Shown here one piece after another: positions 15,998 through 16,232 of a stretch of 64,000 nt of DNA. The notes under the pieces were generated by a model. That model did not search any database, was not told the origin of the DNA, and saw nothing but the letters and a program-made list of their open reading frames with translations. Source of the DNA: a virus (lineage: Duplodnaviria; Caudoviricetes); IMG/VR virus record IMGVR_UViG_3300017700_000931, positions 1-64,000 of that record; one strand, given 5' to 3'. Both the position numbers and the translations under genes were made by a program. Every line of letters begins with the position of its first letter. Position 1 is the first letter of the stretch.

Positions 15998-16032
15998 AAA
16001 AAAACCCGATTCAGTTTTACCTAAATCGGGTT
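15998..16032 (-). terminator. attenuator terminator, operon 1
   Basis: AACCCGAUUUAG/CUGAAUCGGGUU plus U tract. Confidence 0.9.
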
Positions 16033-16057
16033 GTTATATTTTTCTAAAGAATTCTAC

Positions 16058-16153
16058 TTACTCAATTCCCATTAGATATAACATACCCGACCTGCTAGGC
16101 TTCCCGCCTTGCGTATACTGTTTCGGTTGATATGTTACAAATGTTAAGTTCAT
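16058..16153 (-). CDS. attenuator leader peptide 1 (T/Y/Q/P/K/G sensor)
   Basis: MNLTFVTYQPKQYTQGGKPSRSGMLYLMGIE; antiterminator strand 16076-16092. Confidence 0.85.
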   Translation of the reverse strand: MNLTFVTYQPKQYTQGGKPSRSGMLYLMGIE

Positions 16154-16202
16154 TTTGTTTAAATTCTTAATTGTTTTCTTGTTGTTTACTTTAAATATAT
16201 CA

Positions 16203-16232
16203 CAAAGATACGAAAGTTATTTTAATTAGCAA
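16203..16232 (-). promoter_or_regulatory. Bacteroidota-type promoter, operon 1
   Basis: TTGC ... TATCTTTG. Confidence 0.8.

Follow-up and report, generated by a model that had tools for sequence, protein, structure and literature searches.

The window analysed here comprises the opening 64 kb of one virus contig of 362,532 bp, which has a G+C content of 32.7% and carries nearly all of its genes on the minus strand. ARAGORN found 53 tRNA genes and Rfam gave 53 tRNA matches, lying mostly in four large minus-strand blocks. At the locus under study a promoter, a 31-codon uORF, an intrinsic terminator and a tRNA array follow one another, in this order, on the minus strand; this arrangement is referred to as cassette A, and its parts are listed in Table 1 along with those of three paralogous cassettes (B, C, and D). 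The 5' UTR of leader A is about 40 nt long, and the T-run of its terminator is separated by 66 nt from the first tRNA. Terminator A is the only strong minus-strand terminator within 9000-16400, and no strong terminator lies between operon A and the GlnRS gene.

Table 1. Features of cassette A, its surroundings and the paralogous cassettes
Feature	Position	Strand	Description
Promoter A	16203-16232	-	TTG (-33) ... TATCTTTG (-7)
Leader uORF A	16058-16153	-	ATG start, 31 sense codons and TAA
Specifier run, codons 7-19 of leader A	16097-16135	-	TYQPKQYTQGGKP
Putative antiterminator 5' strand (segment 2)	16076-16092	-	uORF codons 21-26
Putative antiterminator 3' strand (segment 3)	16024-16039	-	includes the terminator 5' arm
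Intrinsic terminator A	15998-16032	-	12-pair hairpin (16032-16003) and seven T, -15.4 kcal/mol
tRNA array A	13229-15932	-	12 canonical genes on which ARAGORN and Rfam agree
Pro-like gene	~15670-15595		TGG loop; seen by eye and with relaxed ARAGORN only
Tyr-like non-canonical gene	15044-15110		GTA anticodon loop; 30 bits in Rfam, just reaching the threshold
Lys-like non-canonical gene	13142-13198		TTT loop; 29.5 bits in Rfam, just reaching the threshold; just past the downstream edge of the array
Internal promoter copy, diverged	14429-14470	-	inside operon A, followed by a 94-aa ORF (14391-14107) that is not a leader uORF
GlnRS gene	10843-12459	-	3' of operon A, whose leader lists Gln
Paralog B	33431-33645	-	promoter; uORF 33581-33489; segment 2 at 33521-33512; terminator 33463-33431
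Paralog D	31555-31780	-	promoter; uORF 31705-31616; terminator 31584-31555
Paralog C	58328-58544	-	promoter; uORF 58477-58385; terminator 58356-58328
CCA-adding enzyme gene	59226-60383	-	just upstream of cassette C

The TTG and TATCTTTG boxes of promoter A form what we take to be a promoter of the Bacteroidota -33/-7 type. A 42-nt pattern made from it had three exact matches within the window, against none expected; the promoter is near-identical, to within a few bases, in cassettes B and C, and a diverged copy precedes D. Because another diverged copy lies inside operon A (Table 1), the downstream Gly and Lys tRNAs of that operon may have a second input. Beyond the window, at genome positions 70722-70763 (minus strand), a fourth near-copy is followed by some 500 nt of RNA that looks structured and by a tRNA-Met; uORF and terminator are both absent there. 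A separate box, GTTCTTTGACRT, was seen at 15943-15954 and 58021-58032 (minus strand), with one-mismatch copies at 27146-27157 and 31362-31373. Its distance to the nearest downstream tRNA gene ranges from 10 to 90 nt: 10-11 nt ahead of the tRNAs that open blocks A and C and of tRNA-Glu in block D, and ~90 nt ahead of the tRNA-Phe at 27058. The box occurs barely more often than chance would give; it might mark a processing site or act as a second promoter.

The canonical genes of array A are Pro(tgg) (two copies), Gln(ttg) (two), Tyr(gta), Thr(tgt) (two), Gly(gcc), Gly(tcc) (two) and Lys(ttt) (two). The initial annotation had counted 15 tRNAs downstream of the leader (Pro x3, Gln x2, Tyr x2, Thr x2, Gly x3, Lys x3). 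That count stands for the 12 canonical genes, including all those given for Gln, Thr and Gly; 15 is reached only when the three non-canonical tRNA-like genes of Table 1 are added, one each to Pro, Tyr and Lys. Lys(ctt) and Thr(ggt) tRNAs are situated downstream of the array. Between the Pro-like gene and a tRNA-Gln, some 260 nt (15340-15600, minus strand) are richer in G+C and moderately structured (z = -2.2); Rfam gave no match for this segment.

A few further observations concern the RNA genes at large. Among tRNAs for Cys, Met, Thr, Asn and Ile, which normally have a short variable arm, several are 85-89 nt long here (for example 33330-33416, 32303-32389, 14755-14842, 56292-56380, and 56919-57003). 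The tRNA-like genes at 25456-25530, 26784-26876 and 30583-30653 have odd anticodon loops. At 24795-24890 (minus strand), inside the phage genome, there is an Rfam match to the bacterial small SRP RNA (40.9 bits; gathering score 40).

The initial annotation had read the locus as an attenuator and had noted that codons 7-19 of the uORF are 13 consecutive Thr, Tyr, Gln, Pro, Lys or Gly codons. The run is indeed present as described. These six amino acids make up a share of 0.31 of the predicted phage proteome, in which none of 95,623 13-mers lies wholly inside the set. When all ATG ORFs of 20-45 codons were collected from the six frames of the whole genome, just one of 1677 contained such a run of 13, and that one was leader A itself. 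It is clear that the codon match of leader A exceeds chance. The leader covers all seven anticodon species of its array (7/7) and spells five of its six residues with two different codons each. Rare codons are favoured, as judged by their share of synonymous use (CCG 0.11, CAG 0.09, ACG 0.06, GGC 0.05, GGG 0.08); GGC and GGG correspond to the gcc and tcc isoacceptors of tRNA-Gly.

The paralogs are built in the same manner. Leader B has the specifier set V/L/C and precedes Cys, Val and Leu tRNAs (33416-32129). Leader D, with the set F/D/A/E, reads FDFAFEAAEAD and precedes Phe, Glu, Asp and Ala tRNAs (31540-30312). Leader C (M/H/I/S/N/W/R) reads MHIHMISISNWRRNSS, and downstream of it come a 59-aa ORF and then His, Trp, Ser, Asn, Arg, Ile and Met tRNAs (58136-54932). 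The 59-aa ORF (58129-58308, minus strand) lies between terminator C and the first tRNA and is conserved in two relatives (G001 and G002); since it is conserved behind the terminator, attenuator C would gate a small protein too. The four specifier sets are disjoint and together sum to all 20 amino acids.

Residues 2-20 fall within the leader's own tRNA set in 14, 11, 17 and 11 of 19 positions for the four leaders. In a 4 x 4 comparison, the leaders scored 0-6 of 19 against the other three sets; leader A gave 14/19 for its own set versus 2-4/19. The own-set runs (13, 7, 16 and 11 residues) are matched by none of ~95,000 proteome windows. These results bear on the view that the small ORFs encode functional peptides or are fortuitous, that the terminator just ends the upstream transcript, and that the tRNA match is coincidental or compositional. 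B-type peptides do resemble hydrophobic helices, and the run length of leader B is reached by eight small ORFs genome-wide. An N-terminal M-x-T-x-N-N-I is common to the paralogs and conserved, and this counts against reading them as attenuators. However, promoter A sits between the upstream gene and the terminator, and there are four independent matches between leader and tRNA set, each with a per-window chance of ~1e-6 to 1e-8. We regard the view as extremely improbable; a further point against it, from the C-terminal half of the peptide, is given below.

Relatives were sought with promoter and leader DNA patterns and with the CCA-adding enzyme (hits ~66% identical), and the records found were scanned for tRNAs. 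A protein-based search with the UVR-motif gene upstream of leader A gave no relatives, and a search of GenBank phages with 15650-16260 yielded tRNA-Pro matches only and no leader homolog. Homologous cassettes were recovered in nine further viral records, which were studied in detail, and in many smaller contigs; in all, over 30 contigs from uncultured viruses and metagenomes show the design. With a 21-base pattern taken from the A specifier, 14 viral and 18 metagenome stretches were matched, all 32 in the same context. In 31 of these the uORF is intact, begins with ATG, has 29-36 codons and is trailed by a hairpin and a T-run; the other is the copy of G001, the one relative in which the start codon is missing. 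P/Q/Y/T/G/K tRNAs follow in every record but one, a 2-kb contig that ends soon after the terminator. The specifier residues occur in different orders (TYQPKQYTQGGKP, YTTTYQGKQYPQGQKP, TTTYKGKQYPQGTKP) drawn from one residue set, and a variant, TYQPKQYTQGNKP, has one extra Asn. In one relative the tRNAs are regrouped (Pro, Gln, His, Arg, Ser, Phe, Glu, Asp) and the leader has gained D, H, F, E, Q and S; the match is only 10/19 there, and the record is a fragment.

Across 31 leaders, a mean of 62% of residues 2-20 come from the leader's own tRNA set, and nearly every amino acid with a tRNA in the block occurs in its leader. Anticodon coverage was scored in 25 leaders, each over 24 sense codons counted from just behind the start codon. 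A cognate codon occurs there for 136 of the 146 anticodon species of the operons, and for 89 the codon is an exact Watson-Crick one. Leader B holds CTC, CTT, TTA, CTA and TTG but no CTG, and the Leu tRNAs of block B have the anticodons gag, aag, taa, tag and caa, with cag absent. In B-type leaders generally, the Leu codons follow the set of Leu anticodons that is present (odds ratio 60, p = 1e-7), a statistic that is not fully independent because the sequences are related.

A T-box binds uncharged tRNA directly, through its specifier loop and T-box sequence, and involves no ribosome or ORF. If the row of triplets likewise bound tRNA anticodons in the absence of a ribosome, as a T-box with multiple specifiers might, conservation of the specifier codons at the nucleotide level would be understandable, and such conservation is seen across relatives whose CCA-adding enzymes are only ~66% identical. 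Yet in nearly every homolog the triplets belong to a single reading frame bounded by ATG and a stop codon, their residue order varies while the set is kept, as decoding would predict, and 13 adjacent triplets cannot each dock a tRNA. Moreover, Rfam gave no match to a leader family (His_leader, Leu_leader, Thr_leader, Trp_leader), to the T-box (RF00230) or to another riboswitch, at the gathering score over the window and even at E <= 1 over 12900-16300; there were terminator-like chance matches only (NsiR1, rli40), far below threshold. Direct binding of tRNA is, on these grounds, very improbable.

The alternative pairing proposed in the initial annotation for leader A was also found. Segment 2 (16092-16076) pairs with segment 3 (16039-16024) over 16 bp, as two 8-bp helices flanking one bulged A, and the second strand overlaps the terminator 5' arm as had been stated. 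The duplex has a predicted energy of -19.6 kcal/mol, compared with -8.4 +/- 2.0 kcal/mol in dinucleotide shuffles of the uORF tail (z = -5.5; 0/1000). For leader D, the pairing in the window was not better than in shuffles (z = -1.35).

Folding was modelled in two ways. In the equilibrium model, the complete RNA was folded with the ribosome footprint masked. It predicted a clean switch in leader C and a partial one in A and B; D always formed the terminator. For leader A, the terminator probability was 0.5-0.8 with the ribosome stalled at codons 7-14, apart from codon 12 (~0.1), and ~1.0 when it stalled at codons 15-19. Naked leader A RNA preferred the antiterminator (terminator probability 0.17), so that failed translation initiation would give read-through; naked B and D RNA preferred the terminator (0.98-0.99). 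Since the equilibrium switch was unclear for A, B and D, a co-transcriptional model was used in its place, in which the RNA extends to the terminator loop only and is masked up to 13 nt past the A site. Here, the terminator 5' arm was predicted to pair with uORF codons ~21-26 in all four leaders. With the A site at or before about codon 16, the probability of this upstream pairing was 0.76-0.99 in all four; from about codon 19 (A-C) or 20 (D) onward it was mostly <= 0.3, leader A at codon 21 (0.63) being the one exception. This change falls where the specifier runs end. For lack of a clean equilibrium switch, the argument for an attenuator needs kinetic, co-transcriptional folding; classical attenuators likewise work kinetically.

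Covariation among relatives points to the same pairing. The terminator 5' arms of A-class leaders vary (CCCGAUU, CCCGUCC, GCCCAG, CUCAGUG), and a uORF segment at codons ~21-25 tracks them (GGUCGGG, GGCGGG, CUGGGC, CACUGAG). These changes in segment 2 alter the peptide yet keep the complementarity to the terminator arm; the C-terminal peptide thus follows the terminator stem and is not conserved as protein, which speaks against a functional peptide. Cognate duplexes of segment 2 and arm averaged -12.8 kcal/mol and non-cognate ones -8.2 kcal/mol over 25 leaders of all classes. No permutation was as good as the cognate pairing, either in 100,000 for these 25 leaders or in 100,000 for the nine A-class leaders. 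In the A class, the terminators (-12 to -15 kcal/mol) do not exceed their antiterminators (-14 to -26 kcal/mol) in stability. In fixed windows, cognate pairing was weak for some D-type relatives and for one B-type relative.

One of the nine relatives, G001, is a 353-kb genome with terminal repeats. Its A and C leaders have the promoter fused to mid-leader, with no ATG and with stop codons just upstream, and retain the covarying antiterminator and terminator despite the missing start; this counts against the attenuator reading. As nothing would cover segment 2 in these copies, the model predicts constitutive read-through. The truncated leaders lie at ~2200-2380 of L006 and ~11280-11450 of L003 and have identical promoter-proximal sequence at the fusion. 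It may also be noted that this genome has, at 6242-6314 of L005 and among the Glu tRNAs of a D-type operon, a tRNA with anticodon TTA that would read the stop codon UAA.

Retention of the hairpins in G001 without a start codon, and the lack of a clean equilibrium switch in leaders A and D, are what one might expect if the position of the ribosome on the uORF controlled the processing or stability of the tRNA precursor, or access by Rho, instead of intrinsic termination, with the hairpin and T-run serving mainly as an insulator or a stabilising 3' end. But the covarying segment complements the terminator 5' arm specifically, the placement of segment 2 relative to the specifier run fits the logic of occlusion in all four leaders, and the distance from stop codon to terminator arm stays within 22-36 nt in 26 leaders. 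We therefore consider control of processing or stability unlikely. Three other readings, in which the peptide is functional, the terminator simply ends the upstream gene, or tRNA binds directly, were considered as well and were rejected on the evidence given above.

Taken together, cassette A is likely to be a ribosome-mediated (leader-peptide) transcription attenuator of the trp/his type that controls a phage tRNA operon, as the initial annotation had suggested. The uORF, its matching codons, the terminator and the position of the antiterminator argue for it, as do the three paralogs, the homologs and the covariation, and so does the modelled folding. The anatomy of the cassette, the match between codons and tRNAs, the alternative pairings and the covariation are shown by the sequences and their comparison. 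We infer, beyond these, translation of the uORF, coupling between ribosome and polymerase, and a dependence of read-through on tRNA supply.

The proposed mechanism is as follows. Transcription would start at the Bacteroidota-type promoter, and a ribosome would translate the 31-codon leader while closely trailing RNA polymerase. A shortage of aminoacyl-tRNA for Thr, Tyr, Gln, Pro, Lys or Gly would stall the ribosome within codons 7-19 and leave segment 2 free to pair with the emerging 5' arm of the terminator. With segment 2 so paired, no terminator would form and the polymerase would enter the Pro, Gln, Tyr, Thr, Gly and Lys tRNA genes. If all six were decoded fast, the ribosome would overrun segment 2, the hairpin would form, and transcription would stop at ~15998. 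Leader A would thus act as an OR gate over six amino acids; and since the products are the tRNAs that read the leader, the circuit would be a direct negative-feedback loop on decoding capacity. The three paralogous cassettes would serve the other 14 amino acids likewise.

Why phages carry tRNA genes, and whether and how these are regulated, is a long-standing question. If the proposed mechanism is true, the phage gauges decoding speed codon by codon and supplies only what runs short, and leader-peptide attenuation extends to tRNA genes, with composite leaders of up to seven amino acids. Each leader would then report, as it stands, a shortage within a defined set of tRNAs, which makes the supply hypothesis directly testable. 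More tentatively, the four cassettes may constitute a monitor of decoding capacity for the whole code, by which the phage replaces exactly those tRNAs that turn limiting; the arrays would then be an inducible counter-defence or supply and not a constitutive patch for codon usage. Each of the 20 amino acids stands in exactly one leader, often with one codon per isoacceptor, and shortages might arise from anticodon nucleases of the host, from other defences that target tRNA, or from the host shut-off that the phage itself imposes. This wider proposal we regard as possible and rather doubtful.

Leader-peptide attenuation is a textbook mechanism of amino-acid operons and of pheST. To our knowledge, the leader-peptide attenuators described so far all regulate genes for amino-acid biosynthesis or for aminoacyl-tRNA synthetases. 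Full-text literature searching gave no description of leader-peptide control of tRNA genes, and the text that joins tRNA operon, leader peptide and attenuation concerns pheL. Like the T-box, the phage element would tie a transcription-attenuation decision to the state of specific tRNAs; unlike it, it has an ORF with ATG and stop. The pheST attenuator of E. coli, with its pheM leader, controls an aminoacyl-tRNA synthetase operon. The likeness lies in leader-peptide attenuation acting on the translation apparatus, and the GlnRS gene follows operon A; in contrast, pheM responds to a single amino acid and its operon codes for proteins, whereas the main products here are tRNAs.

Enterobacterial leaders, among them trpL, hisL, leuL and pheL, include multivalent ones, namely thrL (Thr/Ile) and ilvL of ilvGMEDA (Ile/Val/Leu). 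With the thrL/ilvL type the phage cassettes share a short leader ORF with a cluster of regulatory codons, a terminator ahead of the structural genes, a putative antiterminator that shares the terminator 5' arm and has its other strand just 3' of the regulatory codons, and the use of one leader for more than one amino acid. They differ from that type in governing tRNA genes instead of biosynthetic enzymes, so that the output would feed back on the decoding of the leader, and in naming from three to seven amino acids, with codons matched to the individual isoacceptors. Unlike in leaders with long runs of a single codon, the residues occur mostly 1-3 times and often with different synonymous codons. 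The cassettes are, moreover, phage-encoded, with a Bacteroidota-type promoter and no Shine-Dalgarno sequence, and four paralogs split all 20 amino acids among them. Another difference, from trp, is the predicted preference of naked leader A RNA for the antiterminator.

A similar layout is seen in the cultured Caulobacter phage phiCbK. Behind the 45-aa gp083 come an annotated terminator and tRNAs for Pro, Pro, Lys, Lys, Leu (three), Ala and Ser (two); by hand count, ~31 of the 45 residues of gp083 are P, K, L, A or S, and there are also many Thr and His. The phage cassettes described here differ from it in having no sequence homology to it and in promoter type and host phylum. Judged by this one case, the layout is consistent with a convergent design in a cultured phage, in which experiments are feasible.
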